Notes: generated by a model from the letters alone, not told the origin. A stretch of DNA of 64,000 nt from Candidatus Thorarchaeota archaeon (GCA_004524445.1 SDNP01000010.1:22637-86636), one strand, 5' to 3'; positions 3,154-48,117 are shown, counted from the first letter of the stretch. Numbers and translations: made by a program.

Positions 3154-3216
3154 GGGATATGAATCATATAGACCTGTAATTCTCAGAGAGAAGAGTGGAA
3201 GCATCGGAGTATCTCA

Positions 3217-4536
3217 CTAGACATCCACATGATTTCTTGAATTGAAGACTAGGTTCTGTCTTGTGAAACGAAATGACTTCAACAGAACACCGATGCCCAC
3301 TAGAATGAGCAATATAGCGGCAATAAAGCTACCTCTGTAGGCGTCTGCATTCGTGAATCCCGTGCCTATCAGGATATCAGCAATCGGCCCAGTGATTAGC
3401 GTTGCTGCAATGCCCCAGCTGAGGAAGAATGTAGCATTATAGTACGCAAAGAGGCGTCCCCGAAATTCTGCGGGAGCCATGTGTGCCACTATTGAGTAGC
3501 TTGAAGATTGAATGATAACATGGGATGCACCAATAAGAAATGATGATGCTATGCTGAGCAGAAAAGTGGGCGTTACAATGAGCCAGGCTATAGCTGTGAT
3601 TGACAGAAATGAGCCAAACAACAAGACTTTGTCATCATCACTGTCGGCAACCACAGACCCAACTAATAGCCCTGAAACCATGGAAGCAATACTCCCAATG
3701 TTGCTAAAGAGGGCGATTTGCCCGCCAGTGGCTCCAAAAGCTGTGGAATCCGCGAGAAATAGGCTTGATATGATTGAGATTGAATTACGTCCAAAGTTCA
3801 GAAAGACCAATGCTGTTATGAAGAGCAAGTACGCCTTCCGTAATTTCGCAGGCAAAACACTTAGAGACGGCATTTCTACTGGCTCAGGTACGCCTATATT
3901 CTCCACAGCCAACCCATCTTTCATACGGATGGCGAAGTAGACGATGAAACTAGAGAAGATCATCACCATGGCAGCAATAAAGAAAATACTTCCATCAGCA
4001 AACCCTGCGCCATTATCAAAGAGAAAACCACCCAGATATGCACCTCCAATTCCACCGAATCCTCCAACGATAGAGAGTTGACCCATTATCTTCTTTCTTT
4101 CATCAAACTCCGTCAGCTCGGATATCAGTGCAGACCATCCCACATTGGACATGCTCCAGAAAACCTCGATCCCCCCTAAACTGAAAATAATGATGTAACC
4201 CACCACAATCGTATTGCCTATTCCAAGGAAATACTGGTACCCGAAGACCATAAAGATGTGTCCAGCACCGGCAAGAAATTCTCCTAGCGCTACAAATTCA
4301 GTTGGTCTCCGGTATTTGTCTAGAGCACGTCCCCAGAGAAGAGATTGCGTCCCAGCATTAGCAATCATTCCCACCGTTGCCATCAGTGTCACTTCTGTAG
4401 TGGAGAGACCCAAGGACCGTAAGTAGATTGACAGAAAGGTGTAGACAATGGCTCTGCGAAAGTATGTGAGAAACTGAAATGTTGAGAGTCCTGTGAACTC
4501 TCTCATCCTAAGCCGGGAATAGTCTAGGAGCGTCAA
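3217..4536 (-). CDS. MFS transporter
   Basis: About 12 TMs, WGRALDKYRR motif-A-like loop, APAEFRGRLFA. Confidence 0.88.
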   Translation of the reverse strand: MTLLDYSRLRMREFTGLSTFQFLTYFRRAIVYTFLSIYLRSLGLSTTEVTLMATVGMIANAGTQSLLWGRALDKYRRPTEFVALGEFLAGAGHIFMVFGYQYFLGIGNTIVVGYIIIFSLGGIEVFWSMSNVGWSALISELTEFDERKKIMGQLSIVGGFGGIGGAYLGGFLFDNGAGFADGSIFFIAAMVMIFSSFIVYFAIRMKDGLAVENIGVPEPVEMPSLSVLPAKLRKAYLLFITALVFLNFGRNSISIISSLFLADSTAFGATGGQIALFSNIGSIASMVSGLLVGSVVADSDDDKVLLFGSFLSITAIAWLIVTPTFLLSIASSFLIGASHVIIQSSSYSIVAHMAPAEFRGRLFAYYNATFFLSWGIAATLITGPIADILIGTGFTNADAYRGSFIAAILLILVGIGVLLKSFRFTRQNLVFNSRNHVDV

Positions 4537-7385: not shown

Positions 7386-7548
7386 GAGTATACACCTTCA
7401 ACGGAAACCAGCTTACTAAAAGAGCTAGTATGAAACAAGTTCAATTATTTTAGACCTTTTGCATATCTTCGTTGATTCGCAAATGCACAAGCCAAATTGC
7501 TTCCTCTATACCTGTAATGCCAACGGGGTGCAGCAATAGCGAACTCTT

Positions 7549-8796
7549 TTGCCTATTCAAAACGATTTTATCTTGCAATGCGTTATGCAGACTATGACAA
7601 ATCAACCTTCACAGGTCTACTTTGGGTCAATCCAACATGGCAATCCTGGTAGATTTGCATCTATGAGTGCGAAACTGGAAAAAATAATCAAACACCTGGA
7701 TTTCTCAACGATTGAAAAGAAGGATAAGGTTGCCATAAAGATGCATCTTGGCTTTAGAGATGGCTACCAGACAGTCCCTGTGTTTTTCGCTAGAAGAGTC
7801 GTAGAAGCTGTGAAGGAAACCGGGGGCTATCCCTTCGTAACTGACAATCCAACTGCGGTCTATAACGCAGCAGAACGAGGCTATACATCAGAAACCCTCG
7901 GATGTCCGTTGATACCTGTAGCAGGTGTAAAAGATGGATATCATGAGGAACGCGAATTCGATTTTCACAATGTGGACACTCTGTCAATTGCAGGAGTTCT
8001 ACGTGATGCTGATGTTCTCATTGATCTGAGCCATGCTAAAGGACACAATACATGCGGATATGGCGGAGCTATCAAAAACATAGCTCTTGGCGGATACACT
8101 GGCCCTAGCAGATGGAAAAAAATCCACGGGGTAGAAAATAGCATAGAATACTGGGATGCCGACAAATGCAGCCCCGAGCATGCTAAGGAACTGGTCGAAA
8201 CGTGTCCTGAAGGGCACATTAAATACGATGAGGAAAAACATGAACTCACGATTGCCTTTGGTATGTGTAATCAGTGCATGGAATGCATCGATGCAGATGA
8301 AGGCACCGATTGTCTGCATTTTGGACCTGAGAACTTTGCTTTATTCCAAGAGCTGATGGCGAATGGCGCGAATGAGATTATAGATACGTTTGACGAGGAT
8401 AAGAGATTCTACCTCAATTTCCTGCTGGATATCACAGCGCTCTGCGATTGTTGGGGGATTGCACAACCAGCAGTGGTTAATGATATTGGGATATTGGGAA
8501 GTCGAGATATTGTTGCCATTGAGCAAGCCACTCTCGACCTCATAGCAAAGGAAGGATTAGTCGAAAGCATGATTCCACCCTATTTCAGGAATGTGGATTT
8601 GGATTCTGAAGATGAGCTGCATCCATTTGCAAGAATTCACGGTCGAATGAAGACCCCATACTTGGTCACTGAATATGCAGAGAATCTTGGGATGGGATCA
8701 CGAAGCTATGAGTTGATTGAGCTATTATCACCAGATGAAACAAAGGAAATGGAAGCACCTAAGGGCGTAAGTGAGGACCAACCTACATTCTTCTAG
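7549..8796 (+). CDS. DUF362 domain Fe-S protein (true start probably near 7585-7594)
   Basis: VAIKMHLG, SHAKGH..GYGGAIKN, CP..CNQCMEC ferredoxin-like cysteines, CDC, DIGILGSRDIVAIE. Confidence 0.85.
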   Translation: MPIQNDFILQCVMQTMTNQPSQVYFGSIQHGNPGRFASMSAKLEKIIKHLDFSTIEKKDKVAIKMHLGFRDGYQTVPVFFARRVVEAVKETGGYPFVTDNPTAVYNAAERGYTSETLGCPLIPVAGVKDGYHEEREFDFHNVDTLSIAGVLRDADVLIDLSHAKGHNTCGYGGAIKNIALGGYTGPSRWKKIHGVENSIEYWDADKCSPEHAKELVETCPEGHIKYDEEKHELTIAFGMCNQCMECIDADEGTDCLHFGPENFALFQELMANGANEIIDTFDEDKRFYLNFLLDITALCDCWGIAQPAVVNDIGILGSRDIVAIEQATLDLIAKEGLVESMIPPYFRNVDLDSEDELHPFARIHGRMKTPYLVTEYAENLGMGSRSYELIELLSPDETKEMEAPKGVSEDQPTFF

Positions 8797-8996
8797 AGAA
8801 TCGACTTCATTGCATCATGACAGCCTCTAATCGTTCCACCAAACTTTCAAATAGCCTCTCACTTGAAGCAGAAACATACATTAGCTGTGCTGTACAGCCT
8901 TGATTTGAATAGTAGAGCTATAAGTCAAAGCAACGAGTTGCATTCACCTAGCAAGACCCAAACTGCTCAGTACGTTGCATAGAAATACAAGGGGCA

Positions 8997-35710: not shown

Positions 35711-36019
35711 TCAAATTGATACTACTCGGTCGAATTTCTCCATTATCAAGTCAACTATTTCATCGTAACCCACCAGGGATACGTCACCCACGAGTCGGCT
35801 CTTGATTCCCCGTTCTTCTACATGATGTTGAGAAACAAACATTGGAACATCCAAATCAACAACCTTCGAGGAATGCTCACAACCTCTGTCAGCTAAGAAT
35901 ACACCATCTTGGACCAGCAAAAGAGAAATTTCATGTCCCTCTGACTTGAGTGCTTTTGCTATCTCTTCGACGCTTTTGCATTCACTTGATAACCAAAGCA
36001 GGAACTTCACATTTATCAC
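35711..36019 (-). CDS. dsrH: DsrH/TusB family sulfur-relay protein
   Basis: LLLVQDGV, ERGI, VGYDEIVDLI; third gene of a DsrEFH-like trio. Confidence 0.82.
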   Translation of the reverse strand: MINVKFLLWLSSECKSVEEIAKALKSEGHEISLLLVQDGVFLADRGCEHSSKVVDLDVPMFVSQHHVEERGIKSRLVGDVSLVGYDEIVDLIMEKFDRVVSI

Positions 36020-36021
36020 CC

Positions 36022-36372
36022 TCAGAATGTTACCACGATTTCATTCTCTGTGAACATCTTCCCAATCTCAGTGCTGTCCACTATTTCCAAATCTTCCTGA
36101 ATCTCGTCCGGCGATATCTTTCTCTCATCCAGAGAATCCTTGCTAACACATATTCGTCCTTCAAAGCTCTTGTAGACGGATTTGAACATTCTAATAGGCA
36201 TATCATCCATATCTTTCAATGCCGCATATACGCCATCACTCAGAAGTAGCATTGTTGGTTCATGATCCATTCCGAACATGCCTACGCTTGCTCGCCACCC
36301 TTCAAAATTCGTTACTGTTCCAAATGGTCTACTTCTGATCAAGAGCAATACTCTTCGTTCTGTGAACTCCAT
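36022..36372 (-). CDS. dsrF: DsrF/TusC family protein
   Basis: RPFGT..EGWR, LSDGVY, DSLDER. Confidence 0.78.
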   Translation of the reverse strand: MEFTERRVLLLIRSRPFGTVTNFEGWRASVGMFGMDHEPTMLLLSDGVYAALKDMDDMPIRMFKSVYKSFEGRICVSKDSLDERKISPDEIQEDLEIVDSTEIGKMFTENEIVVTF

Positions 36373-36384
36373 TGTACTAGCCTC

Positions 36385-36759
36385 CTACATTGTAAATGTC
36401 ACAAATCTTTCACATTCGCCAACTATCTCAGCCAGTTCAGTTAATCCAGTGACTTCAATTTCGGGGATAAAGTCAGATCCCTCTTGGTCAAAACCTCTCG
36501 CAGAAGTGCAAAGCCCACATGCTTGAAATTCTGCGCCTAATTCTGCAAGCTCTTTAAATTTCTGCTCCATTGGTCTATCAGGGTCAGGTTCCTGTCCAAG
36601 TATCGCATTATTTACGCCATCAATGAACAGGAATACCTTCACACAATATCCCTTCTCCAAGGTAGCCTTCGCAAGATCAAAAAACGTGTGGCTATTCTCA
36701 TAGGTATATGGACCAGTAAGCAAGAGGATGCCTAAGCATTTCTTTTCCAAGGGTATCAA
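36385..36759 (-). CDS. dsrE: DsrE/TusD family sulfurtransferase
   Basis: GPYT, VFLFIDGV, ACGLCTSARG (persulfide Cys region), GLTELA..ERFVTF. Confidence 0.85.
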   Translation of the reverse strand: MIPLEKKCLGILLLTGPYTYENSHTFFDLAKATLEKGYCVKVFLFIDGVNNAILGQEPDPDRPMEQKFKELAELGAEFQACGLCTSARGFDQEGSDFIPEIEVTGLTELAEIVGECERFVTFTM

Positions 36760-36936: not shown

Positions 36937-38004
36937 ATGGCAAGGATAAAGATTAGTTATACTGACAAGGATGGAAGGGAAAGAATATACGAGGTCAACG
37001 AAGGAGAAGTTTCCATTCCTCTAAGGCGGAAAAAAGTCGCAGATATAGATTTGACCCCTTTGGCAGGAATGACCGGAATTGTTTCACTGGATTTGGGCGC
37101 AAACTATCTAGATAGTGTAGATTTGACACCACTGGGTGAATGTCCTGATTTAGAGTCGATCAATCTCTTCAAAAACCCGTTAGGAACCCTTGATATCGAA
37201 CCGCTAAAAAGCTGCGAAAAGCTTCAGGAGCTGAATCTTGGTTCAACAGAACTCGCATCAATATCCCTAGACCCTCTGTCAGGAACAGATCTAAGAAGAA
37301 TCCGGTTATTCAACAATCAGATCTCCGAGATAGACTTGCGACCGCTTTCAGCTTGCCGCAATTTGGAGTCATTAGAACTGGAAAACAACCAACTCTCAGG
37401 GATAGACTTGGTCCCTCTCTCTAATTGCAAACACCTGAATCAACTCAATCTCATGTACAATGAGCTGACCACACTTGACCTTAGTCCTATTGCAGATTGT
37501 CAAGAAATGAAGTTTCTTTACCTCCACCATAATATGCTCTCCGAGATAGACCTCTCGCCAATGGAGAAATGGCATGATTTCAGAATCTTGAGGCTCGGTG
37601 GTAACGATCTGGAGTTTCTCGACCTGAGCCCATTATCAAATTGTCGCGAACTAAGACGGCTTGGCTTGGCAATGAACCGGATTTCAGAGCTCGATTTGCA
37701 GCCATTAGAAAATTGTCCCGAATTGCGTGCATTAGACGTGGCAGGAAATGACATAAAATCATTAGATTTGTCCCCCCTTGCAAAATGTGAGTCTCTAGAG
37801 GATTTCTATATCTATAGCGACCATCCTGACGAAAACGATATCAATGAACTGGATATCAGCCCACTTTTTACATGTGGTAGTCTGGAGGATTTAACTGTGT
37901 CCCCCCATACAGAGATTCATGCTAAAGGTAATCTAAAAAATTCGGATGATATTCCGTTTGCGATTGAAGACCTTATTGAAGAAAAGAGGATAAAATGGGA
38001 CTGA
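36937..38004 (+). CDS. Leucine-rich repeat protein
   Basis: About 12 regular 22-aa repeats xDLxPLxxCxxLxxLxLxxNxL. Confidence 0.92.
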   Translation: MARIKISYTDKDGRERIYEVNEGEVSIPLRRKKVADIDLTPLAGMTGIVSLDLGANYLDSVDLTPLGECPDLESINLFKNPLGTLDIEPLKSCEKLQELNLGSTELASISLDPLSGTDLRRIRLFNNQISEIDLRPLSACRNLESLELENNQLSGIDLVPLSNCKHLNQLNLMYNELTTLDLSPIADCQEMKFLYLHHNMLSEIDLSPMEKWHDFRILRLGGNDLEFLDLSPLSNCRELRRLGLAMNRISELDLQPLENCPELRALDVAGNDIKSLDLSPLAKCESLEDFYIYSDHPDENDINELDISPLFTCGSLEDLTVSPHTEIHAKGNLKNSDDIPFAIEDLIEEKRIKWD

Positions 38005-38461: not shown

Positions 38462-39106
38462 ATGGTAGTAGAGATGGATCAAGAAACACAAGCGCAGGTT
38501 AAGACCCTTTTTGCACCTCTTGATAGTGATGTCAAGATACACCTTTTTGTGAAGGAGCACGAGTGCCTGTATTGCGGCGACACGCGAACACTTGCCGAAA
38601 AAGTAGCAGAATTGTCTGATAAAGTTCAAGTCGCGGAACACCATGATGAGCCAGGAAAGGGTAAGGCTGGTGAATTTGGAGTTCAAAGAGTACCTGCTAT
38701 AGTTTTGGAGGGGAAGGAACCATACAAAGTCCGATTCTACGGAATTCCCGCAGGACATGAATTCGGAGCATTGATTGCCGGTATTATCGCGGTTTCGACT
38801 GCAGAGATTCCGTTGGACGGAGCCATCATTGAGGATATCAAAGACATTGATGAACCCGTTCATATTCAGGTCTTCACGACACCTCAATGCCCGTACTGCC
38901 CAGATATGGTGAAGTTAGCTCACTACGCTGCAATACTGAATCCGAACATAGAGTCGGACATGGTTGAGTCTCTAGAGTTCCAGGATGTTGCCAAGAAATA
39001 TGAGGTATTTGGTGTTCCAAAGACAATAATCAATGAGAATACCGCTATCGAAGGACTAGCATCGCCGGACCTCTTCGTAGATAAGCTATATGAAGCAATA
39101 GGATAG
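38462..39106 (+). CDS. Protein disulfide oxidoreductase (two thioredoxin folds, PDO/AhpF-N-like)
   Basis: CLYC and CPYC motifs, GIPAGHEF, GVPKTIIN. Confidence 0.92.
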   Translation: MVVEMDQETQAQVKTLFAPLDSDVKIHLFVKEHECLYCGDTRTLAEKVAELSDKVQVAEHHDEPGKGKAGEFGVQRVPAIVLEGKEPYKVRFYGIPAGHEFGALIAGIIAVSTAEIPLDGAIIEDIKDIDEPVHIQVFTTPQCPYCPDMVKLAHYAAILNPNIESDMVESLEFQDVAKKYEVFGVPKTIINENTAIEGLASPDLFVDKLYEAIG

Positions 39107-39133
39107 AGTATGACGCTCTACTGACGTGATATT

Positions 39134-39424
39134 ATGGTGCATTCCTCTGTTATTATTCTGAGACCAGCTCCATCGTATGGAAGTGGAGATTCAGACAAAA
39201 TAGTCTCAGACCACTTCAACTATCTCAAACAGCTGCATTCGGAAGGTCTAGTGAAGATGGCGGGTCGATTTTCAGACGTGTTGTTTGGTCTCGTCATACT
39301 TGAAACAGAAACGCTTGAGGAAGCCAGAGATATTATGAATAATGACCCCGCCGTCAAAGGAAGAGTTTTCCACGCGGAACTCTATTCCTGGAGTGTTGCA
39401 ATAGGAGAGTTCGAAAAGGGTTGA
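39134..39424 (+). CDS. YCII-related domain protein
   Basis: HFNYL, AGR, GLVI, DPAV. Confidence 0.82.
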   Translation: MVHSSVIILRPAPSYGSGDSDKIVSDHFNYLKQLHSEGLVKMAGRFSDVLFGLVILETETLEEARDIMNNDPAVKGRVFHAELYSWSVAIGEFEKG

Positions 39425-39469
39425 TTTTTTGACCTCCAAATCAACCTTAAAATGACATATCCAGCTAGA

Positions 39470-40477
39470 TTACCGAGTGATAATGTCTTCATCCGTAGTT
39501 TCTGCCATTTCTTTGGTTGAAGTGGGTTCGAATTCACCCTCTTCAAGCTGTTGACAAGTAAAGACGAATTCATTCTCATTCACATATCGATAGGCCTGAT
39601 AGGCGGCATGCACACCTTCGGCAACTCCCGTGATAGCCTGTTTGAATTCGCTATCAACAACATCTCCTGCAGCAAATACACCAGGAACGTTGGTTCGGCT
39701 CGAGCGGTCAATCATTATCTCCCTTTTCACATTGACCTCAACCCCTAGTTCTTGAGCCAGATCGGATTGAGGAATGCCACCAATAGCAACGAAGATACCA
39801 TCCAGCTCAAGTGCGTCACTACCGTTTTGTGGGTTGTCCAGCTTTACTCCTTCAACTCTGTTCTCACCAAGAATCTCCACGACATTTGTATTTGTAATGA
39901 CCTCTATCTTGTCTTCCTTGGTGATCCTTCTTTGATTTACAGGCTCAGGTCTGATTTTGTTGCCGCGATAAATGATGTAAACCTTGGGACAATATTTTGC
40001 AAGTAATAATGCCTCCTTTGCGGCGCTATCACTACCGCCGACAACAGCAACTGTCTTTCCTTTGAAAAGAGGTGCATCGCAGAGAGCGCAGTAACTCACG
40101 CCTCGGTTTTTCAAACGATCGTGCCCTGGTACCTCAAGTTCCCGTTCTTCCATTCCCGTGGCAATAAGCACAGTTTTTGCAAGGTAGGTCTTACTATCAG
40201 TTACAACATAGAAGAACCCTTGCTTATCCCGGAAGATTTTCTCAACCATGTCAATGTCGATATGAACAGGATAATCCAGCGTATGCACCTTGATCTTGTC
40301 TGCTAGCTCCTGTCCCGTCAGCTGAATAAACCCAGGATAGTTGGCTACATCATCAGTAAGAGTGATGGTGCCACCATCAACATCCCCAATCACAGCTGTC
40401 GATAGGTCGAGCCTAGCAGCATACATTGCGGCTCCATATCCCGTAACACCCGAGCCCACTACTACTAAATCGTACAT
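39470..40477 (-). CDS. trxB: Thioredoxin-disulfide reductase
   Basis: GSGVTG, NYPGF, GVSYCALCD, GGSDSA, FAAGD. Confidence 0.92.
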   Translation of the reverse strand: MYDLVVVGSGVTGYGAAMYAARLDLSTAVIGDVDGGTITLTDDVANYPGFIQLTGQELADKIKVHTLDYPVHIDIDMVEKIFRDKQGFFYVVTDSKTYLAKTVLIATGMEERELEVPGHDRLKNRGVSYCALCDAPLFKGKTVAVVGGSDSAAKEALLLAKYCPKVYIIYRGNKIRPEPVNQRRITKEDKIEVITNTNVVEILGENRVEGVKLDNPQNGSDALELDGIFVAIGGIPQSDLAQELGVEVNVKREIMIDRSSRTNVPGVFAAGDVVDSEFKQAITGVAEGVHAAYQAYRYVNENEFVFTCQQLEEGEFEPTSTKEMAETTDEDIITR

Positions 40478-40481
40478 TGCA

Positions 40482-40724
40482 TCAGTCCCTCATCTTTCTT
40501 TTGATTCTTCTCTCAGTGCGACGATCAAATCCGATGAAGAAATCATCACCAATCGCCGTTACTGGTACTGCCTTCTGTTTGGTTAGGTTGAATAGCTCTT
40601 GCAAAGTCTCGGGATTTGTGAGAATGCATTTTTCCTCGTAGGAGATATCTTGTTCATCGAGATACTCCTTGAGCTTTTTCGAATGCGGGCATTGCGGAGC
40701 GGTATAGATTACTGCAGTTGGCAT
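40482..40724 (-). CDS. Glutaredoxin/NrdH-like protein (CPHS)
   Basis: IYTAPQCPHS, AVPV..IGFD; start MPTAV at 40724. Confidence 0.85.
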   Translation of the reverse strand: MPTAVIYTAPQCPHSKKLKEYLDEQDISYEEKCILTNPETLQELFNLTKQKAVPVTAIGDDFFIGFDRRTERRIKRKMRD

Positions 40725-40938
40725 TATGTGGTGTCCTCTGTAAATTAACTCTCTTTCAAGCATAATGATAGTCCACGCAATATAAATAATCAATTGGTGG
40801 CAATACCCCTCAGCTCTGACTACTCTTAAATGGTTTTGCAGGACTAGGCCTAGAGCCGTGTTTCTGATAGTTATGCCTATAGCCTTAAGTAGAGTATAGA
40901 GGTAATTTCCATGCTTTAAAGGCTAGGAGAAGAGCCAG

Positions 40939-41415
40939 ATGGATAAAGAAAAAACGTTGGAATTTATTGAAGAACAAGTAAAGCTCGAGCATCAAATAAT
41001 CTCTCTTATTGAGTCCAATGTCGAGAAACTTGGAAATGCCTTTGTAAAGGTCATATTACTTGCGATTTCACGAGATTCTAAGAAGCATGCTGAATTGCTA
41101 GGTGCCCTCAAGGAAGCGGTTACGGGCCCAACTCCATTCATCAGTGAAGAAGAACGAGATAAAATAGCGAAAGGAATCGAGAAGCACATCGAGTTGGAGC
41201 AAAAGGCCATCGATACCTACGGCAAACTAGTAGAGTCCAGTGACAATCATCAAGTCATGACCATCGCTTCCATCATCAAAGAAGACGAGATCAAGCATCA
41301 TAACCTTCTGAAGGAGTTGCACAAGACAGTCATCTCTCCAGAAACTCTAACCGAAGACATGATATGGGATACATTCTGGAAAGATAGTCCCTGGCATGGC
41401 AGCCCGGGCGGCTGA
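40939..41415 (+). CDS. Ferritin-like/rubrerythrin-like protein
   Basis: E..DSKKH / E..DEIKHH diiron-type spacing. Confidence 0.78.
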   Translation: MDKEKTLEFIEEQVKLEHQIISLIESNVEKLGNAFVKVILLAISRDSKKHAELLGALKEAVTGPTPFISEEERDKIAKGIEKHIELEQKAIDTYGKLVESSDNHQVMTIASIIKEDEIKHHNLLKELHKTVISPETLTEDMIWDTFWKDSPWHGSPGG

Positions 41416-41443: not shown

Positions 41444-41989
41444 CTATTCCGTAAACTGCTCAATAATCTGCGTGAACTTATAGTCAAGGCTCTCAATGCC
41501 AATTCCGGTCTTCGCGGAGATTAGCTGAGTTTCCAAGCCATACTCCTCTGCATATCTATCCATCTCTGCCTCCACGTTATCAAATGGTGGGGTGAGGAGG
41601 TCTATCTTATTTCCAACAAGAATGAATCGCTCTCCTGCATCATCATCGAATGAGAGGCGACTATTTTTCTCAATGCGAGGAACCCAGTATCCAAACAGCG
41701 AGTCCAGTGTTGATATCTTAGAAACATCGAAAAAGAGCAGTCCAACTCGGGCCCCTCGTATCATACTCTGTAGCGTTTCGATGAACCGAGTTTGCCCGCC
41801 AAAATCCCAGAGGCTCAGCGTCGTTTGTTTCCCACTAGGTAACTCCAGCCGCTTGGTGTCGAAGGCGGCTCCCACCGTGGTCTTGAGCATTTCCGGATCT
41901 GGGAAGCTTCCCGTAGTCCACCGTTTAGTGAACGAAGTCTTACCACATTCAGTATCTCCGAGGATAACGGCTTTGATTATAGCCAACAC
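41444..41989 (-). CDS. Rab-like small GTPase
   Basis: GDTECGKTS, TTVG, WDFGGQ, NKID, ISAK; GGAGGTG SD. Confidence 0.92.
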   Translation of the reverse strand: MLAIIKAVILGDTECGKTSFTKRWTTGSFPDPEMLKTTVGAAFDTKRLELPSGKQTTLSLWDFGGQTRFIETLQSMIRGARVGLLFFDVSKISTLDSLFGYWVPRIEKNSRLSFDDDAGERFILVGNKIDLLTPPFDNVEAEMDRYAEEYGLETQLISAKTGIGIESLDYKFTQIIEQFTE

Positions 41990-42047
41990 GTCACCTCCAA
42001 TGCATGATATCCCGATTCAAGCGACCCCTTAATGCTTTTCATTGTAT

Positions 42048-43379
42048 TTATCCCTGTGCCGCAAGCCTCCTAGGGCTGCTGTAGATAAGCATGATTCCTG
42101 TCAATGCAAGAAGCGCTATCGATAACCAGAAAGGAAGATCATCTGATGCGATGGTGACAATGGATGAGCCCAGTGCAGCAAACATGAACGCAATGAAATT
42201 ACGTGCGGCGTTAGTAGCCCCAGATTCCATAAGCTGCTTCGCCACGCGAAGGTAAGCAATCGCTCCAATACCCAATGCAACGGAGAGAATAAGGAACAAG
42301 TCATTGTATACCCATCTGCCCATTCGGACATAGTCATTGCCCAACACAATCATGGCTCCGCTGAATATTACAAGTATGTGGCGAGCAATTCGTCTTCCGG
42401 AGGGGGAGGATAGTGAGTATATCCCAGCCAGAACAAAACTAGAAGCTCCCGCCACTCCAAGAATCCATTCGATGAATAACATTGGCTCATCTTGGAGCCC
42501 CGTTTCGATCAGAACAGACCAAAACACACCATGATTAACCGCAATCATGGAGATGCATATTAGAGTAATCGTGATAAGAGCTGGTATTCGTGCCCGTGTC
42601 TCCAGGGCCTGTTCAACAAAGAAGTCAATTGAACCAATGGCAGCCAATGCAACGAATGTAGAAAGAAGAACGAAGAGCCAGATTTCAAACTGGTTTGAAA
42701 TAATCGCGGCAGGAATGAGTGCTGTTGCCACAATGATAGCCATAAAACCGGCGAATGATGTGATGATTTGTTTCCAAGGTTGAAGCATTGCTCTTAGTAT
42801 TGCAGCTGAAAGCGCCACTGGCAGGAATACCAAAAGAAAGTATTCAGGTCTTGCAAAAATCAATTCTGTAATTATAGCAAACCAACTGCCCAAGAATGAA
42901 AGCAAAATCAGGAGCATTCCCGCGGTAAACGGTGATGGCGACTCATAGAGAAGCCATAACGAAAGCATTAGCGAAACGGAGAATGTGATGTACAGAGCCA
43001 AGCCCAAGACAGGTGATACCTCTGTTGGACTCCCCAACGCAACAATAGCAGACCATGTAGTGGCAACGATGGCAACAAGATATGTCCCGTAGTGCGCATA
43101 TCGATTCTCCGTCGCAATTTGTACCTGGGCATTAATCAAGAATACGAAGAAGAGTACAATCCAAAACCTTGCTGCAATGGTTCCAGCGGAGAGCGTGGAA
43201 GTGAATGTAAGCCCTCCAAGTGCGGCTCCCGAGGCTCCAAAGAAAACAAGTGCTTTGAGAGTAGATCCAGAAACCCTCTTGCGAACTGAGAGAACAGAAG
43301 ATGAATACTTCACCAGTGATCCAGCTAGAATTATAATAGCAACAATTGCTCCAAATTCTATTGAAAGCTGAAAATCCAT
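42048..43379 (-). CDS. Polytopic membrane protein (~15 TM), paralog B
   Basis: Start MDFQLS at 43379, 1 nt after the previous stop, with GGAGGTG SD; colinear similarity to paralog A. Confidence 0.85.
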   Translation of the reverse strand: MDFQLSIEFGAIVAIIILAGSLVKYSSSVLSVRKRVSGSTLKALVFFGASGAALGGLTFTSTLSAGTIAARFWIVLFFVFLINAQVQIATENRYAHYGTYLVAIVATTWSAIVALGSPTEVSPVLGLALYITFSVSLMLSLWLLYESPSPFTAGMLLILLSFLGSWFAIITELIFARPEYFLLVFLPVALSAAILRAMLQPWKQIITSFAGFMAIIVATALIPAAIISNQFEIWLFVLLSTFVALAAIGSIDFFVEQALETRARIPALITITLICISMIAVNHGVFWSVLIETGLQDEPMLFIEWILGVAGASSFVLAGIYSLSSPSGRRIARHILVIFSGAMIVLGNDYVRMGRWVYNDLFLILSVALGIGAIAYLRVAKQLMESGATNAARNFIAFMFAALGSSIVTIASDDLPFWLSIALLALTGIMLIYSSPRRLAAQG

Positions 43380-43380
43380 T

Positions 43381-44754
43381 TCAGGACACCTCCGCAACGG
43401 ACTCATTTGTATGATTCATTCCTCTGGAGGCAATGGATATCCGTCTGGGGCCACTCAATAAGAGCATAAGTGCAGCCAAAACAATGAGGACTAAAACTGC
43501 TCCGTATGGGATGACATCTGAAAACATGGCTACTATGCCAATACCCAAAGATGCCATGATAAAGAGGATGAATCTTCGCGCAGCCGATGATGATCCAGCT
43601 CTTGCTATGGCTCGGGCAGAATATGCATGTGCGAGAACCCCAACTAAAATAATTCCCGCAAGGGGTATGTACAACGGTTGAAGCCCATATCTTTGTGCCT
43701 GAATATAGGGATGGCCGAGCACAACGAAGGAACTCGCAATCAAGAGTTCGATGTCAAGAATATAGCCAGTTATTTTCTGGCTCAGGACAGAAGACAAACC
43801 TGCTAGTGTGAAGGCCATGACTGCAACTACCCCAATAATCCAATCCACATAGAGCAGGCCAGGATCCCATTCTCCCATTTCAACTGCTATTGCCCAAGCA
43901 TTTGCATGAGTGATGGCTAGCAAACCCACTCCGATCAAAGTAATGGAAATAAACTGAGGAGTCCTAGTCTTGAGTTCCTGAACCTGTTCAAGAAAGAAAT
44001 CCAGTGGAATAATCACTGATATCCCCGCCAAGGGAGCAATCAGTGTATAGGTCCAGATGAAAAAATCACCTGCAATCAAAGCGGGAATGACCAGCGAGAT
44101 ACTAGCAATAGCACCAAAGATTGCGAGAAAATAGATGATGATGTATCTCCAAGGTTTCAGAGTTGCAGCCAGAATCGAAGCCGCAATCGCAATGGGAGCC
44201 ACTTCCAGCATGAAGAATTCAGGATTGCTTGCCACAGTGCCTGATGATGCAGAAATCCAAGTAACAACAAAAACTACCAGCAAGATAAGCATAGATCCAG
44301 TGAATGGCGAAGGCGTTCTTACTACCAGAACAATACCCATGCCACCTGCAGCTAACATCAAAACGGATAGCCCTATAATCAGCGCAGTTGGAGTGAAAGA
44401 AATGTATAAACGCAAAAAGGTTTCTACTAATATCATGAAGAATATGAGCAATGAAACTATGATGCTAATATTCAGATTTCGCTTACTTCTGGCAAAGAGA
44501 TAGGATTGCGAAATTACCAATAGACACAGCATCAATGCAACCCAAATAGTGACTAGTTGTGGTACAAACAATGCTTGCAAGCCAATCATACCCATGGAGA
44601 GCAATGAAGCGCCGAAGAAAGACAGTGCTCGTTTTGTTTCATGAGTGAGGTCATCAAATACTCGAGATAGACGCATCGAGAAGATTGTTGCAGCACCTAC
44701 CAAGAAGACAAATGAAACTATGCCACTAATTGTCAGTGAAAGCTGGAAGTCCAT
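43381..44754 (-). CDS. Polytopic membrane protein (~15 TM), paralog A
   Basis: Start MDFQLS, GGAGG SD; shares PSPFT, PE(Y/F)F, L(Q/K)PW, DFF.EQ and terminal PRR with paralog B. Confidence 0.85.
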   Translation of the reverse strand: MDFQLSLTISGIVSFVFLVGAATIFSMRLSRVFDDLTHETKRALSFFGASLLSMGMIGLQALFVPQLVTIWVALMLCLLVISQSYLFARSKRNLNISIIVSLLIFFMILVETFLRLYISFTPTALIIGLSVLMLAAGGMGIVLVVRTPSPFTGSMLILLVVFVVTWISASSGTVASNPEFFMLEVAPIAIAASILAATLKPWRYIIIYFLAIFGAIASISLVIPALIAGDFFIWTYTLIAPLAGISVIIPLDFFLEQVQELKTRTPQFISITLIGVGLLAITHANAWAIAVEMGEWDPGLLYVDWIIGVVAVMAFTLAGLSSVLSQKITGYILDIELLIASSFVVLGHPYIQAQRYGLQPLYIPLAGIILVGVLAHAYSARAIARAGSSSAARRFILFIMASLGIGIVAMFSDVIPYGAVLVLIVLAALMLLLSGPRRISIASRGMNHTNESVAEVS

Positions 44755-44770
44755 GACTCAGAATCCTCCT

Positions 44771-45148
44771 CTATCTCCAGAGGTCACCAATCTCCTTGCC
44801 ACGCCTTTCTACTGCGCCCTGCACCTTTTCGCTCAGCTCTTGCACTGAGGAGTTGGAACGATCAATAATGACTCTTAATGCATCAGCAGTTTCACGCTCA
44901 GCATCTCCCTCACATATCAGAATGTGGTCATCAAGCTGACAGTAGCCAACAACACCCGAGTCTGATTTCATATACATGGGAGTGCCCTTTTTCTCGTCTG
45001 AAACATCACTTCGTTCAAGTGCAACGGAAACTAGTTGTATGATACCTGTCAGCTTCGCAATACGTTCATCCTGTTTCTCTCCCCTTGGATAGATAACTTC
45101 TGGCTTGAGATCATCAATATTAATTCTTGCAACCAAACGAACGACCAT
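44771..45148 (-). CDS. Small alpha/beta protein, longin-like topology
   Basis: Apparent beta-beta-alpha-beta-beta-beta-alpha-alpha pattern with PEVIYP; ATG immediately follows the upstream stop. Confidence 0.55.
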   Translation of the reverse strand: MVVRLVARINIDDLKPEVIYPRGEKQDERIAKLTGIIQLVSVALERSDVSDEKKGTPMYMKSDSGVVGYCQLDDHILICEGDAERETADALRVIIDRSNSSVQELSEKVQGAVERRGKEIGDLWR

Positions 45149-45439
45149 TTAGTTCCCACCCCCAAAGGCACTCTTGATCCAGTCGATTTCCGACTTGCTG
45201 ACCTTCGAGTTATTCTCTTTAGAACCAGCCTTGTATGCCACAATCACATCGCGTACTGCCAGTTGTGATCCACGAAAATATAGAGTTATTAGAAGTTCAT
45301 GTCCCTCAGAGCATTCAGTAGTGAGCGTCGGAGACCTGCCTTCAGAACGAATTTTGTTCATTACATCATTTTCCTGCTTTTCACTCAGCAAGAGCATAGC
45401 ATCGTTGTGGCATTCTGGACAAGTTATTGTAACATTCAT
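45149..45439 (-). CDS. Zn-ribbon-like protein (CxxC...CxxxH)
   Basis: MNVTITCPECH..ECSEGH..LAVRD; probable ATG at 45439 (ORF extends to 45565). Confidence 0.72.
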   Translation of the reverse strand: MNVTITCPECHNDAMLLLSEKQENDVMNKIRSEGRSPTLTTECSEGHELLITLYFRGSQLAVRDVIVAYKAGSKENNSKVSKSEIDWIKSAFGGGN

Positions 45440-45924
45440 TCTGGCGTACTCCGAACAATTGTAGCAAATCAGGGGTATCCTATGTGGGTTTGTTTCCGTG
45501 TGTTTGGTATCACATATATTGTTTAATCGTACGAATGGTGGGTATTCTCTAGGGTCTGCTAGCATGGATTGGAAGCGAACGCTTATGTTGCCTAACCCAT
45601 TAGTTTTGGAAACCTTTGTTCAATTGCTGGAGAGATAGAGAAGTGACAGTAGAAGATGTTTTGAGAGAGGATACAGGTTCTGCTTTGATGTTGTCAAATG
45701 AAACAGTGGTCAGAGGTGCCCTTGAAGCCGATGTCAAGGTTGTAGCCTTTTACCCTGGGTCTTGAGGAAGGAAACATATGCCTTGGCTAGCGCAGAGAAA
45801 AGCATTCGAATTGGTGTCACCTCAATCAACTCAACCCTCTCAAAGGCAGACATCAATGGTTTCGGAATGATGTTTGAATAGAGTTTTATTGCAGGAGCCA
45901 CGACTCCTGATAGAGGTTTCCAAA

Positions 45925-46935
45925 TTGCCTGACGAGAAATACGATACAATAGTCATAGGTGGCGGTCCCGCAGGTTGTTCCGCAGCGCTTCATCTAGCAT
46001 ATCACAAACGAAATGTGCTGGTTCTTGATCGGGGAACGAGTCCAATGGCGTACCATACAAATACAATCATGAACTTCGCCACTGGGGACGCCTACCATGA
46101 AGGGAGATCTCTCCTGAGAAATCTTCAGGGAGCTGCGAGTTCAGCAGGCGCGGAGTTCAAGGAAGCGAATGTTACCGAATTGACGGGGGAGTACCCTGAT
46201 TTCACTGTTTCAACCGAGCCCAGCTACAGAACCAAAGACGAGGACGTTTACCAAGCAAAGACACTGGTTTTTGCCACAGGCACTGCAAGAAAGCACCCCC
46301 AGGTAGGCGGCTTTTGGAGAAACTGGTTGTCAGTAGCTAATGTGGGCAACGGGGCGTTCTATTGTCCTGATTGTGAGGCACCACTGTGCAAAGGCAAAGA
46401 CGTCATAGTTGTGAATGCAGGGACTGTGGGCAGCGCATTGCACGTGGCGAATTCGCTGTCTCGATTCACCGACCAGATTCGAATCCTGATGACTGAAGAC
46501 GCCTATATACCATTCGAGGATCAGGACTTGTCCAAATTGGATGACTCGCCCTTTGAATGGATGCATGGCAAAATCAAAAAGATAGAGTTTCCAAGACCTG
46601 GTGAGTTTCAGAGAATCACACTGGAAAATGGTGAGTCGTATCGATGTGAGGTGTTTTTTGTCGCGCATGTTGCTGAACCACGATCTGAACTAGCTCGACA
46701 TCTGGGAGTGGAAGTTGACGAGAGAGGGAATATTATCACCGACCATCGGGGAAAGACAAATCTCGAGGGCATTTGGGCTGCTGGTGACGTTAGACCCATC
46801 ACGCAACAAGTTGCTATGGCAACAGGCACTGGGAACTATGCTGCACTTATGATTAACCAATTTCTTGGGAATAAGTATGAAAAAGAAGAGCTATTCGACC
46901 ATCCCGAATGTCGCAACATCCTTCATTTGACATAA
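45925..46935 (+). CDS. Thioredoxin-reductase-like FAD oxidoreductase
   Basis: GGGPAG, FATG, YCPDCE, WAAGD; TTG start at 45925 inferred from GAGGT SD. Confidence 0.85.
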   Translation: MPDEKYDTIVIGGGPAGCSAALHLAYHKRNVLVLDRGTSPMAYHTNTIMNFATGDAYHEGRSLLRNLQGAASSAGAEFKEANVTELTGEYPDFTVSTEPSYRTKDEDVYQAKTLVFATGTARKHPQVGGFWRNWLSVANVGNGAFYCPDCEAPLCKGKDVIVVNAGTVGSALHVANSLSRFTDQIRILMTEDAYIPFEDQDLSKLDDSPFEWMHGKIKKIEFPRPGEFQRITLENGESYRCEVFFVAHVAEPRSELARHLGVEVDERGNIITDHRGKTNLEGIWAAGDVRPITQQVAMATGTGNYAALMINQFLGNKYEKEELFDHPECRNILHLT

Positions 46936-47028
46936 AGACTATCTACATCAAGACCCTATTGGTTTCCAGCACCATCCATCTATAAAGCAACAGTTTCCCA
47001 ACAAAAACGCTTATTAGTGAGGTTGCAT

Positions 47029-47041
47029 TATCTATAGTTAA
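47029..47041. promoter_or_regulatory. Putative operator, copy 2
   Basis: TATCTATAGTTAA downstream of AAAAACGCTTATTA BRE/TATA. Confidence 0.35.
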
Positions 47042-47071
47042 TTCTACACTGATAATTGCGGGTGCAATATA

Positions 47072-47551
47072 ATGAAGACCAACGATGAAAAACTTAGGGA
47101 AACACTGAAGAAACAAATTGAGGTGGAAAAGGAAACAACCGAAATGGTGAAGAAAGCTGAAGAAAGAGTCTCTGAAACAGCTGTCAAGCTGGCTTTCATG
47201 GAAATCCGCTTAGACTCATTGAAGCATCAGATGTTCCTTGAGGGATTCCTTGACATGCTTGATGTAACACCTTGTGATGAATGGAGTGCGAAGGCTCAGC
47301 GCTATGTTGACAGGGTGAAACTTGAGAGAACAGTCAATTCAATAAAAGAGAAGGAAATTGAAATGCTATCATTGGCGAAGGAATCACTGCAAAATACAAG
47401 TGATCCTATTGCGGGGTTTATGCTAAATCATCTCATTGAAGATGAGAAACACCATAGAGACACGCTAATGAAATTGATTCGCATTATTCAACAATCTCCC
47501 TTGCAATCTGTGAAGGCGGAGAAAGGATCCGATATAGTGTGCGAGGATTGA
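47072..47551 (+). CDS. Ferritin-like protein
   Basis: E..DSLKH / E..DEKHH. Confidence 0.75.
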   Translation: MKTNDEKLRETLKKQIEVEKETTEMVKKAEERVSETAVKLAFMEIRLDSLKHQMFLEGFLDMLDVTPCDEWSAKAQRYVDRVKLERTVNSIKEKEIEMLSLAKESLQNTSDPIAGFMLNHLIEDEKHHRDTLMKLIRIIQQSPLQSVKAEKGSDIVCED

Positions 47552-47646
47552 ATGGAACCAGTAGCTGAAGAAGATTTTATGTAATTTGAAGAGGCAGAAA
47601 ATTAGCAAACACATTGCATGCAGTAGCAGAAGATGGAGTGATATAC

Positions 47647-48117
47647 ATGGCAAATTTGAATGAAATATCAGAGGACTGCCCATCTTGTGTGGATTACATA
47701 CAAGACATGTCCCCATACAGAAAGAAGAGATGGCAACAAGTCAGAGAAAACTACCAGCTTGATGAAGAAGCCCTTGAGAAGCTAAAGAAATACAAAGATG
47801 ACTATACCTTTGTGGCTGTCTTCGCAGATTGGTGCGGTGATGCTAGGAAGGCAATCCCTGTTTTGTCACTATTGGAGAAGGAGCTGGACATTAAAATCAA
47901 GGCGCTTGGTGGTATGACAAAACCACCATATGGGTCAGACGAGCTATGGGCGGTACCACCCAGCCCTGAAGAGGTCAGAGCATTCGAGGTTACTAGCAGT
48001 CCAACTATCCTTATATTTGATGGAGATGGAGAAGAGGTGGGGCGAATAAAGACCAAACCCAAGAATACACCTACCATCGAAGAAGAACTTGTATTTCTCA
48101 TAGAGCAGAATGAATGA
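47647..48117 (+). CDS. Thioredoxin-family protein (monothiol WCGDA)
   Basis: FADWCGDA, SPTILIFD..EVGRI; ATG at 47647 after GGAGTGA. Confidence 0.82.
   Translation: MANLNEISEDCPSCVDYIQDMSPYRKKRWQQVRENYQLDEEALEKLKKYKDDYTFVAVFADWCGDARKAIPVLSLLEKELDIKIKALGGMTKPPYGSDELWAVPPSPEEVRAFEVTSSPTILIFDGDGEEVGRIKTKPKNTPTIEEELVFLIEQNE

Follow-up and report, generated by a model that had tools for sequence, protein, structure and literature searches.

Do five adjacent genes of an Asgard archaeon encode a membrane sensor that is wired to a small GTPase of its own? The genes in question lie on the minus strand at positions 41444..45439 of a 64,000-nt stretch of DNA from a Candidatus Thorarchaeota archaeon (referred to here as the window). 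An earlier note on this DNA had read them as a candidate operon in which two paralogous membrane proteins would act on a Rab-like GTPase through a longin-type regulator. The host belongs to the class Thorarchaeia, and the search set consisted of 400 genomes, i.e. 87 of this class and 313 of other Asgard archaea. The cassette type of the window is designated here as type I and a second, diverged type as type II, while L and G numbers are labels of loci and genomes. The cassette was found to exist in two ancient versions and to be conserved in several lineages of Asgard archaea. Based on gene context and predicted folds, we consider it likely, though well short of certain, that the membrane protein is a sensor controlling the dedicated small GTPase via the longin-fold and zinc proteins. 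The features of the cassette are as follows.

45149..45439, minus strand: zinc protein of 96 aa, with a CxxC + CxxxH site and a weak match to Pfam Zn_ribbon_Brz.
44771..45148, minus strand: longin-fold protein of 125 aa, assigned from an AlphaFold model and structural matches.
43381..44754, minus strand: membrane protein TMa of 457 aa, with 15 predicted helices and an N-out/C-in orientation, assigned from an AlphaFold model, topology and fold matches.
44143..44754, minus strand: predicted first seven-helix bundle of TMa (residues 1-204), matching a GABA-B receptor at Z 15.1.
43417..44070, minus strand: predicted second seven-helix bundle of TMa (residues 229-446), matching ADGRV1 at Z 12.2.
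42048..43379, minus strand: membrane protein TMb of 443 aa, a paralogue of TMa with 30% identity end to end, optional in the family.
41990..42047, minus strand: gap of 58 bp with an A/T-rich stretch and GGAGGTG, a possible internal promoter according to gap-length comparison.
41444..41989, minus strand: Rab-like small GTPase of 181 aa with intact G1-G5 motifs (Pfam Ras, E 7e-24).

The earlier note's description of the locus was largely upheld. All five open reading frames (ORFs) are encoded on the minus strand, with gaps of 0, 16, 1 and 58 bp in the order zinc, longin, TMa, TMb and GTPase. The TAA of the zinc gene, which with its CxxC + CxxxH site heads the operon as had been noted, abuts the ATG of the longin gene (45149/45148), GGAGG lies within the 16-bp gap between the longin and TMa genes, and the GTPase start is preceded by a GGAGGTG of its own. 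The further GGAGGTG that had been assigned to the 1-bp gap does exist, but is located just upstream of this gap, inside the end of the TMa gene. Homologue starts favoured 45439 over an upstream ATG at 45565 as the start of the zinc gene. Both membrane proteins indeed begin with MDFQLS and align end to end (residues 1-440, 30% identity, E 2e-67), and the GTPase retains GDTECGKT, Thr38, DFGGQ, NKID and SAK, being the only one of the five proteins with a Pfam match above cutoff (Ras). As a chance control, the small-GTPase genes found in this genome were inspected for a same-strand neighbour of ≥10 predicted helices within ≤2.6 kb, which was observed for 1/16 of them; since the gene order is also kept across genera, the arrangement is regarded as more than chance.

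The zinc gene exhibited a dN/dS (ratio of non-synonymous to synonymous substitution rates) of 0.18, and in the longin, membrane and GTPase genes, where synonymous sites are saturated, the non-synonymous proportion (pN) was far below the synonymous one (pS). No conserved motif was evident by eye in the 80 bases 5' of the zinc gene. Two metatranscriptome runs from one study, with 5-6% of words, yielded contigs that may include DNA and that cover short pieces of the zinc, longin, TMa and TMb genes, one spanning zinc-longin and one longin-TMa; no contig of these two runs fell on the GTPase gene.

Within Thorarchaeia, TMa matches were detected in 40/87 genomes and the longin profile matched in the same 40/87, with 0 matches among the 313 other Asgard genomes. 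GTPase orthologues (E 1e-30 or better) were likewise present in 40/87 genomes, 36 of which are common with the membrane/longin set; in the four genomes with a membrane gene and no GTPase orthologue (G006, G032, G040 and G067), the membrane gene is situated at a contig end. Forty regions around membrane-gene matches were fetched and mapped together with the window, with 11 ORFs removed as truncated or without a clear start. Among 33 zinc-longin-membrane runs, the GTPase was shown to terminate 29, while three halt at contig ends and one enters a second cassette, in agreement with the synteny that had been proposed for the GTPase. The 29 complete cassettes contain one membrane gene in 22 cases and two in seven, so that, given this and the GTPase ending 29 of the 33 runs, the core is taken to consist of four genes (zinc, longin, membrane and GTPase). 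The gene order was conserved across genera, and the entire cassette is duplicated in tandem in L040, L041, L042 and L063. A word-based search matched three proteins, including a TMa relative of 47% identity labelled Thorarchaeota, in agreement with its Atlas cluster, and retrieved no loci from genome contigs. In L064 (2342-3738), a frameshift or an assembly error has divided the type I membrane gene into ORFs of 140 and 329 aa.

These counts bear on the suggestion of the earlier note that the two membrane paralogues form a heterodimeric sensor or scaffold. In a fast tree of membrane genes, the b copies of pairs constitute a single clade (eight rows, support 100) and the pair of G044 a separate, recent duplication, indicative of an old duplication within a subclade and of a recent one that arose independently. 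The age of the pair, whose b copies occur across several genera, and the 1-bp distance between the TMa and TMb genes would suit an obligate heterodimer. Nevertheless, such a dimer finds no support as a general feature and is considered highly improbable as an explanation, as 22/29 complete type I cassettes and the type II cassettes examined possess a single membrane gene, and as each chain is already predicted to hold two seven-helix bundles.

Type II cassettes were recovered from weak hits of the zinc profile. Zinc, longin-like and membrane genes (the latter encoding 455-490 aa) were found in 20/20 such loci, two of them cut by contig ends, and an adjacent Rab-like GTPase gene in 18/20, in several gene orders (e.g. 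L140:3176-6569, L141:3293-5947 and L142-L159); a 21st weak-hit locus, from the genome of the window, is not a cassette. An extra longin-like gene is present in L140, L142 and L150, and L159 carries two back-to-back cassettes. The type II membrane protein occurs in 44/87 class genomes, in part as fragments, and is absent from the genome of the window; either cassette type is found in 60/87. The type I and type II membrane families are homologous from end to end (hhalign 91-92% over 372-373 columns; reversed control 0.3%, twelve block shuffles ≤20%), and the zinc proteins of the two types are homologous as well (98%).

Outside the class, a full-library profile search returned 67 proteins, seven of them distant but full length; source labels exist for five of the seven distant full-length clusters and name Asgardarchaeia for two and Odinarchaeia for two, the rest being hypothetical or without a label. 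One of these distant loci, L128, displays the order zinc, longin, membrane and GTPase, all four scoring on type I profiles. Among the 14 best-scoring zinc loci outside the class, six contain all four gene types (L161-L165 and L174), six are not cassettes and two (L171 and L172) harbour a GTPase gene without a membrane gene. According to source names, L164 and L165 belong to Atabeyarchaeia, L163 and L174 to one Asgardarchaeia genome, and L161 and L162 to one further family. The membrane gene of L174 is split.

Rearrangements make two sub-modules visible, zinc-GTPase and membrane-longin. In G001, from the other family of the order, a zinc-GTPase pair faces a membrane-longin pair on the opposite strand, and three genomes of one genus retain adjacent zinc and GTPase genes only (L130:5668-6643, L131:5559-6561 and L132:5973-6911). 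These cases, together with the 40-66 bp gap that precedes the GTPase in some loci, are what would be expected if the genes shared their regulation and inheritance without being coupled physically, the two pairs being separate units. We consider this quite unlikely, as all four genes are adjacent in two deeply diverged cassette types, in several orders and in at least four lineages, and as the tail of the zinc protein was lost together with the longin and membrane genes (in one genus, by one event).

The nature of the membrane protein was addressed with an AlphaFold model of TMa, constructed from 54 sequences (predicted local distance difference test, pLDDT, 94.2; predicted template modelling score, pTM, 0.91), in which 15 membrane-length helices are present. 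Alternation of Lys/Arg residues (positive-inside) predicts an N-out/C-in topology. The whole chain was searched against known structures and the halves were read off the alignment ranges. With the wider structural aligner, all 50 listed rows were G protein-coupled receptors (GPCRs), designed GPCR-like folds or rhodopsins. Residues 1-204 matched the GABA-B receptor 9jqx_A (Z 15.1, root-mean-square deviation (rmsd) 3.6, 202 residues aligned), ADGRL3 (Z 14.6) and mGlu2 (Z 13.5), and residues 229-446 matched ADGRV1 (9fte_A, Z 12.2, rmsd 4.5, 210 aligned), with 21 more GPCR rows at Z 10.1-11.1. The aligner warns that helical bundles reach Z ~13 merely by common arrangement, so that the match is rated as fair for the first half and as moderate for the second. 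In the model, TMa thus appears as two GPCR-type seven-helix bundles plus one linker helix, helix 8, which restores the orientation of the second bundle. The 7+1+7 layout with about 15 helices per protein that had been estimated by eye is thereby supported for TMa, and the GPCR-type fold, which the earlier note had proposed to search for, was found in both halves of the model. TMb presumably adopts the same fold, judging from its sequence.

An internal repeat was also apparent in the sequences of the type II membrane family (hhalign 82%, E 1e-5, 126 columns; reversed control 0.07%) and was not detected in the type I protein (hhalign under 5%). Pfam assigned no family to the membrane proteins; specifically, no 7tm family was retrieved for the 54 type I members (E up to 1) or the 19 type II members (E up to 0.5), and neither Pfam nor the TMa model revealed a soluble domain or kinase match. 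In an independent comparison, the Atlas model aligned at residues 2-201 with bacterial seven-helix proteins (TM score by target 0.64-0.70), the nearest named cluster being HisKA_7TM (score 0.83, a lead only). No transporter or channel fold occurs among the 50 best structural rows, and MFS/POT rows in Foldseek reached a TM score by query (TMq) of 0.2 or less. As a test for an MFS-type transporter, this comparison extends to the families listed, where the best matches are seven-helix folds.

The weak Foldseek rows for TMa represent a mix of ceramidase, rhodopsin, GPCR, LYCHOS and transporters, headed by ACER3 (E 0.077) and a microbial rhodopsin (E 0.13), with LYCHOS at E 0.16-0.35 and TMq under 0.3. 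The two top rows would be in line with a GTPase-regulated seven-helix enzyme (a ceramidase/PAQR-type hydrolase) or a retinal protein. However, the metal site of such hydrolases comprises three conserved histidines plus an aspartate, whereas the type I alignment holds a single conserved helix histidine (283), and ACER3 does not figure among the 50 rows given by the wider aligner. Microbial rhodopsins bind retinal through a lysine of helix 7; since Lys does not exceed half of the 54 rows in any helix column, a retinal site is lacking. An enzyme or retinal protein is accordingly given very little probability.

For the 125-aa protein, the AlphaFold model (pLDDT 84.9) displayed the topology strand-strand-helix-three strands-two helices. 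Its best structural match was the longin domain of DENND1A (Z 10.0, rmsd 3.4, 112/125 aligned), followed by CPLANE (Z 9.6), Mon1-Ccz1 (9.3), BLOC-3 (8.9) and TRAPP (8.7), consistent with the longin-like nature suggested previously. Roadblock chains aligned to residues 1-85 or 1-104 only (MglB, Z 7.1), longin matches spanning more of the chain. In sequence comparisons, no Pfam longin model scored above cutoff and the 125-aa protein of the window had no Pfam hit, Intu_longin_1 was matched by 2/43 type I longin members (best E 0.12) and Fuz_longin_1 by 2/22 type II members (best E 0.0015), and the longin profile retrieved no clear solved relative. Conservation is highest in helix 1 (0.83), and the C-terminal tail is also among the most conserved parts. 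Longin/roadblock dimers are described in passages of PMC10933270 as GTPase platforms, mainly guanine nucleotide exchange factors (GEFs), and the modelled fold makes the 125-aa protein a candidate platform for a GEF or GTPase-activating protein (GAP).

The GTPase is a single-domain protein with the catalytic Gln kept, and the closest solved relatives of its profile are Rab28 and Ypt7/Rab7. The solved Thor-Rab (7ezb) scored below human Rab28 and is therefore assigned to another subfamily. A link to heterotrimeric G proteins was not obtained, as the Pfam G-alpha model covers merely residues 5-23 at E 0.052. The protein has no C-terminal cysteine or prenylation motif, nor is one conserved in the 38 aligned members. 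At the P-loop position matching Ras Gly13, a Glu is present in 38/38 type I GTPases and a Gly in type II; by analogy with Ras mutants, this Glu may alter nucleotide exchange. In a 71-row tree, the type I GTPases of Thorarchaeia form a clade of their own (support 100/100) and those of type II a clade over three families (98/98) with one extra neighbour inside, while the GTPases of L128, L133 and L163 are joined to type I only weakly. The L128 GTPase gene (3204-3782) is an open, intact frame without ATG, GTG or TTG at the expected start and overlaps the stop of the membrane gene, which reflects an unusual start or an assembly error.

The zinc protein carries, in addition to its CxxC + CxxxH site, conserved GRSPT and RD motifs and a C-terminal W-x3/4-FG tail; its Zn_ribbon_Brz match (E 3.5e-4) is below the Pfam cutoff, and its profile identified no clear solved relative. 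The family is matched in 183/400 Asgard genomes, often adjoining small GTPases. The tail was observed in 37/37 cassette copies. In the reduced zinc-GTPase pairs, the zinc protein lacks it and has a lysine/arginine-rich end instead, and L174 (284-1000) encodes a 238-aa fusion of an N-terminal zinc-family domain (E 2e-5) with a Rab-like GTPase. This one loss event and one fusion suggest that the zinc core binds the GTPase and the tail the longin protein or the membrane part.

Several further members of the zinc family were noted. A putative fusion of zinc and longin sequences at L173:4670-5299 found no confirmation in hhalign (under 1%). One distant member is joined to a winged helix with a weak resemblance to DUF742 (E 9e-4, below cutoff), and triplets of a GTPase, a zinc-domain/winged-helix fusion (weak DUF742) and a V4R-like protein are located at L178:4364-6037 and 7412-8983 (in tandem) and at L179:4154-5817. 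Proteins of 280-291 aa with the zinc-family domain N-terminal and a C-terminal part of no assigned family are encoded at L176:5316-6158 and L177:4985-5860, in a family with a zinc hit in 93/135 genomes; in L176, a seven-helix membrane gene lies 3' of the zinc-domain gene, with a GTPase gene nearby on the other strand. At L099:8829-11958, a gene for a 408-aa protein that we take to be an M28-type peptidase lies between a distant zinc gene and a distant membrane homologue of 449 aa, and neither a longin nor a GTPase gene was found in this region.

Gene order and joint inheritance tie the genes together, and it is from these and the predicted folds that we infer contacts, the direction of signalling, GEF versus GAP action and a ligand. 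In the proposed mechanism, the 15-helix protein would be the input, its enzyme-free fused GPCR-type bundles changing shape upon a ligand, lipid or membrane cue, and its conserved cytoplasmic face would hold the longin protein. The latter, probably dimeric, would set the nucleotide state of the Rab-like GTPase of the cassette as GEF or GAP. The core of the zinc protein would bind the GTPase, while its W-x-FG tail would act as a tether to the longin/membrane part, substituting for the missing lipid anchor of the GTPase. In the genome of the window, the duplicated membrane gene would add a second input or a heterodimer partner.

Signalling may also run in reverse, with the GTPase, switched by the longin protein, regulating the membrane protein as an effector or landing site, e.g. 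a scramblase, channel or membrane-domain marker. The genetic linkage expected would be identical, the outer loops of TMa are short and without a ligand domain, conservation is biased to the cytoplasmic side (loops 0.48 versus 0.40 for outer loops), the GTPase has no lipid anchor, and opsins are reported as scramblases (10.1101/2025.08.17.670764). Conversely, the best fold matches are class C and adhesion receptors, and membrane paralogues diversify alongside one common GTPase, as alternative inputs would. Reverse signalling is considered improbable, although it is the chief rival of the sensor reading.

A number of observations count against the membrane protein as a sensor of a dedicated GTPase. 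The Z scores of the TMa model (12-15) are near the level reachable by common helical arrangement, and Foldseek returned no match for TMa at E 0.001 or better. Few polar residues are conserved inside the helices (His283 and Gln257) and an extracellular ligand domain is absent; moreover, seven-helix folds also occur in prokaryotic cyclases, rhodopsins and enzymes, according to passages of PMC10760455, so that a receptor role does not follow from the fold. The longins of the two cassette types exhibited no sequence similarity (hhalign 0.3%), and the membrane genes of L163 and L174 had no profile match, being assigned by position and hydrophobicity only. The GTPase can persist without the longin and membrane genes, as it is intact in three genomes that lack them and present in L171/L172 without a membrane gene. 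The membrane-to-GTPase gap is ≤20 bp in 19/35 loci and 40-66 bp in the two-membrane-gene subclade, including the window, and because of this longer gap an added internal promoter before the GTPase is possible in that subclade. Finally, the genomes are related, and the co-occurrence counts and the distance correlations of 0.8-0.9 are thus not independent events.

Among known systems, the cassette would work, by analogy, most like an actinobacterial conservon (CvnA-CvnD) in which a GPCR-fold protein replaces the kinase; conservons often exist as several paralogous copies. CvnA is a histidine kinase-like sensor, whereas the cassette has an enzyme-free double seven-helix protein; CvnB is an MglB-type roadblock protein, a fold related to the longin topology predicted here; and CvnC, labelled DUF742 in Pfam, contrasts with a zinc ribbon, for which Pfam gave no DUF742 match, while the GTPase here is Rab-like. 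Because it has no kinase, the cassette is not regarded as a conservon member. The likeness resides in a four-gene prokaryotic operon that combines a sensor with a Ras-like GTPase, a protein of roadblock type and a small accessory protein, as described in PMC13343842, and the statement of the earlier note that no prokaryotic analogue is described was accordingly too strong.

The likeness to GPCRs consists of N-out/C-in seven-helix bundles with ~200 residues aligned at Z up to 15.1 (in the predicted model), the closest classes being class C (GABA-B, mGlu2, CaSR and GPRC5D) and adhesion receptors. A single chain with two bundles is reminiscent of class C receptor dimers. The cassette protein differs in that none of 54 members matched a 7tm family in Pfam, its bundles are fused by a linker helix, it has no extracellular domain, and the G protein linked to it is a small GTPase of 181 aa rather than a heterotrimer; for want of a sequence match and a heterotrimeric G protein, it is not counted as a GPCR family member. 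With longin Rab GEFs (DENN, Mon1-Ccz1, BLOC-3 and TRAPP), the cassette shares a full-length longin fold paired with a GTPase nearest to Rabs; it differs in its stand-alone single longin, without a DENN, tri-longin or TRAPPC3 partner in the cassette, and in a GTPase without a prenylation motif. The LYCHOS (GPR155)-GATOR1-Rag pathway likewise connects a GPCR-like membrane sensor to a small GTPase via a longin-domain complex. LYCHOS itself differs in combining a transporter-like domain with one seven-helix domain, and its weak Foldseek match does not imply homology.

In Asgard archaea, passages of 10.1101/2020.10.19.343400 describe a LAMTOR1-like/Rab/DENN operon, in which a small GTPase has a roadblock/longin-type neighbour, and those of 10.64898/2026.10.28.762692 mention 7TM proteins and one class C GPCR-like cluster; the passages on described Asgard GTPase operons link no seven-helix protein to such an operon. 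Longins are listed for Loki and Odin in passages of PMC10933270, where GTPase genes of MK-D1 are generally not in operons with longins. The terms GPCR, G protein, receptor and longin do not occur in the main text of PMC12962969. No published description of the cassette was found in the literature searched, from which subscription journals are mostly missing and supplements are excluded, and the cassette is apparently undescribed as a system, although the membrane family may be listed in tables of the 2026 structural-clustering preprint, Liu et al. or Eme et al.

In this cassette of Asgard archaea, conserved linkage of the genes connects a GPCR-fold protein with a G protein. The seven-helix sensors of prokaryotes that are cited in passages of PMC13466386 and PMC10760455 produce output via cyclases or kinases, without a G protein, and the former, a 2026 review, weighs convergence of GPCRs against descent from prokaryotic rhodopsins, neither being provable. 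In addition, the cassette represents a matched set of GTPase, longin and membrane anchor, a matching that passages of PMC10933270 present as hard to achieve from Asgard genome layout. Receptor-driven GTPase switching, if true, would constitute a categorically new system. The boldest version, to which we attach a low probability, is a functional prokaryotic GPCR system in which a ligand on the double seven-helix protein would trigger exchange on the Rab-like GTPase via a longin GEF, the bundles would share ancestry with class C or adhesion GPCRs, and receptor-GTPase coupling and longin-Rab recruitment would have been joined before eukaryotes. Assays of GEF/GAP activity and of recruitment lie within direct reach, since three of the four core proteins are soluble and small.

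Next to the cassette, one convergent gene was recorded.

40939..41415, plus strand: rubrerythrin-like gene, a neighbour outside the cassette (Pfam Rubrerythrin, E 0.003, below cutoff).

Many Thorarchaeia loci have this gene next to their cassette, and it was not seen there in L128. It forms part of a redox island (38462-41415 and 45874-48117) in which the cassette is embedded, with thioredoxin-reductase-like genes on both sides of the cassette and glutaredoxin-, thioredoxin- and rubrerythrin/ferritin-like genes. Many Thorarchaeia loci preserve this setting, which may point to a redox-linked function of the zinc protein. Elsewhere in the window, a leucine-rich-repeat protein of 355 aa, recognized by eye from its pattern, is encoded at 36937-38004 (plus strand), and three small consecutive genes, presumably DsrE/TusBCD-like, are located at 35711-36759 (minus strand).

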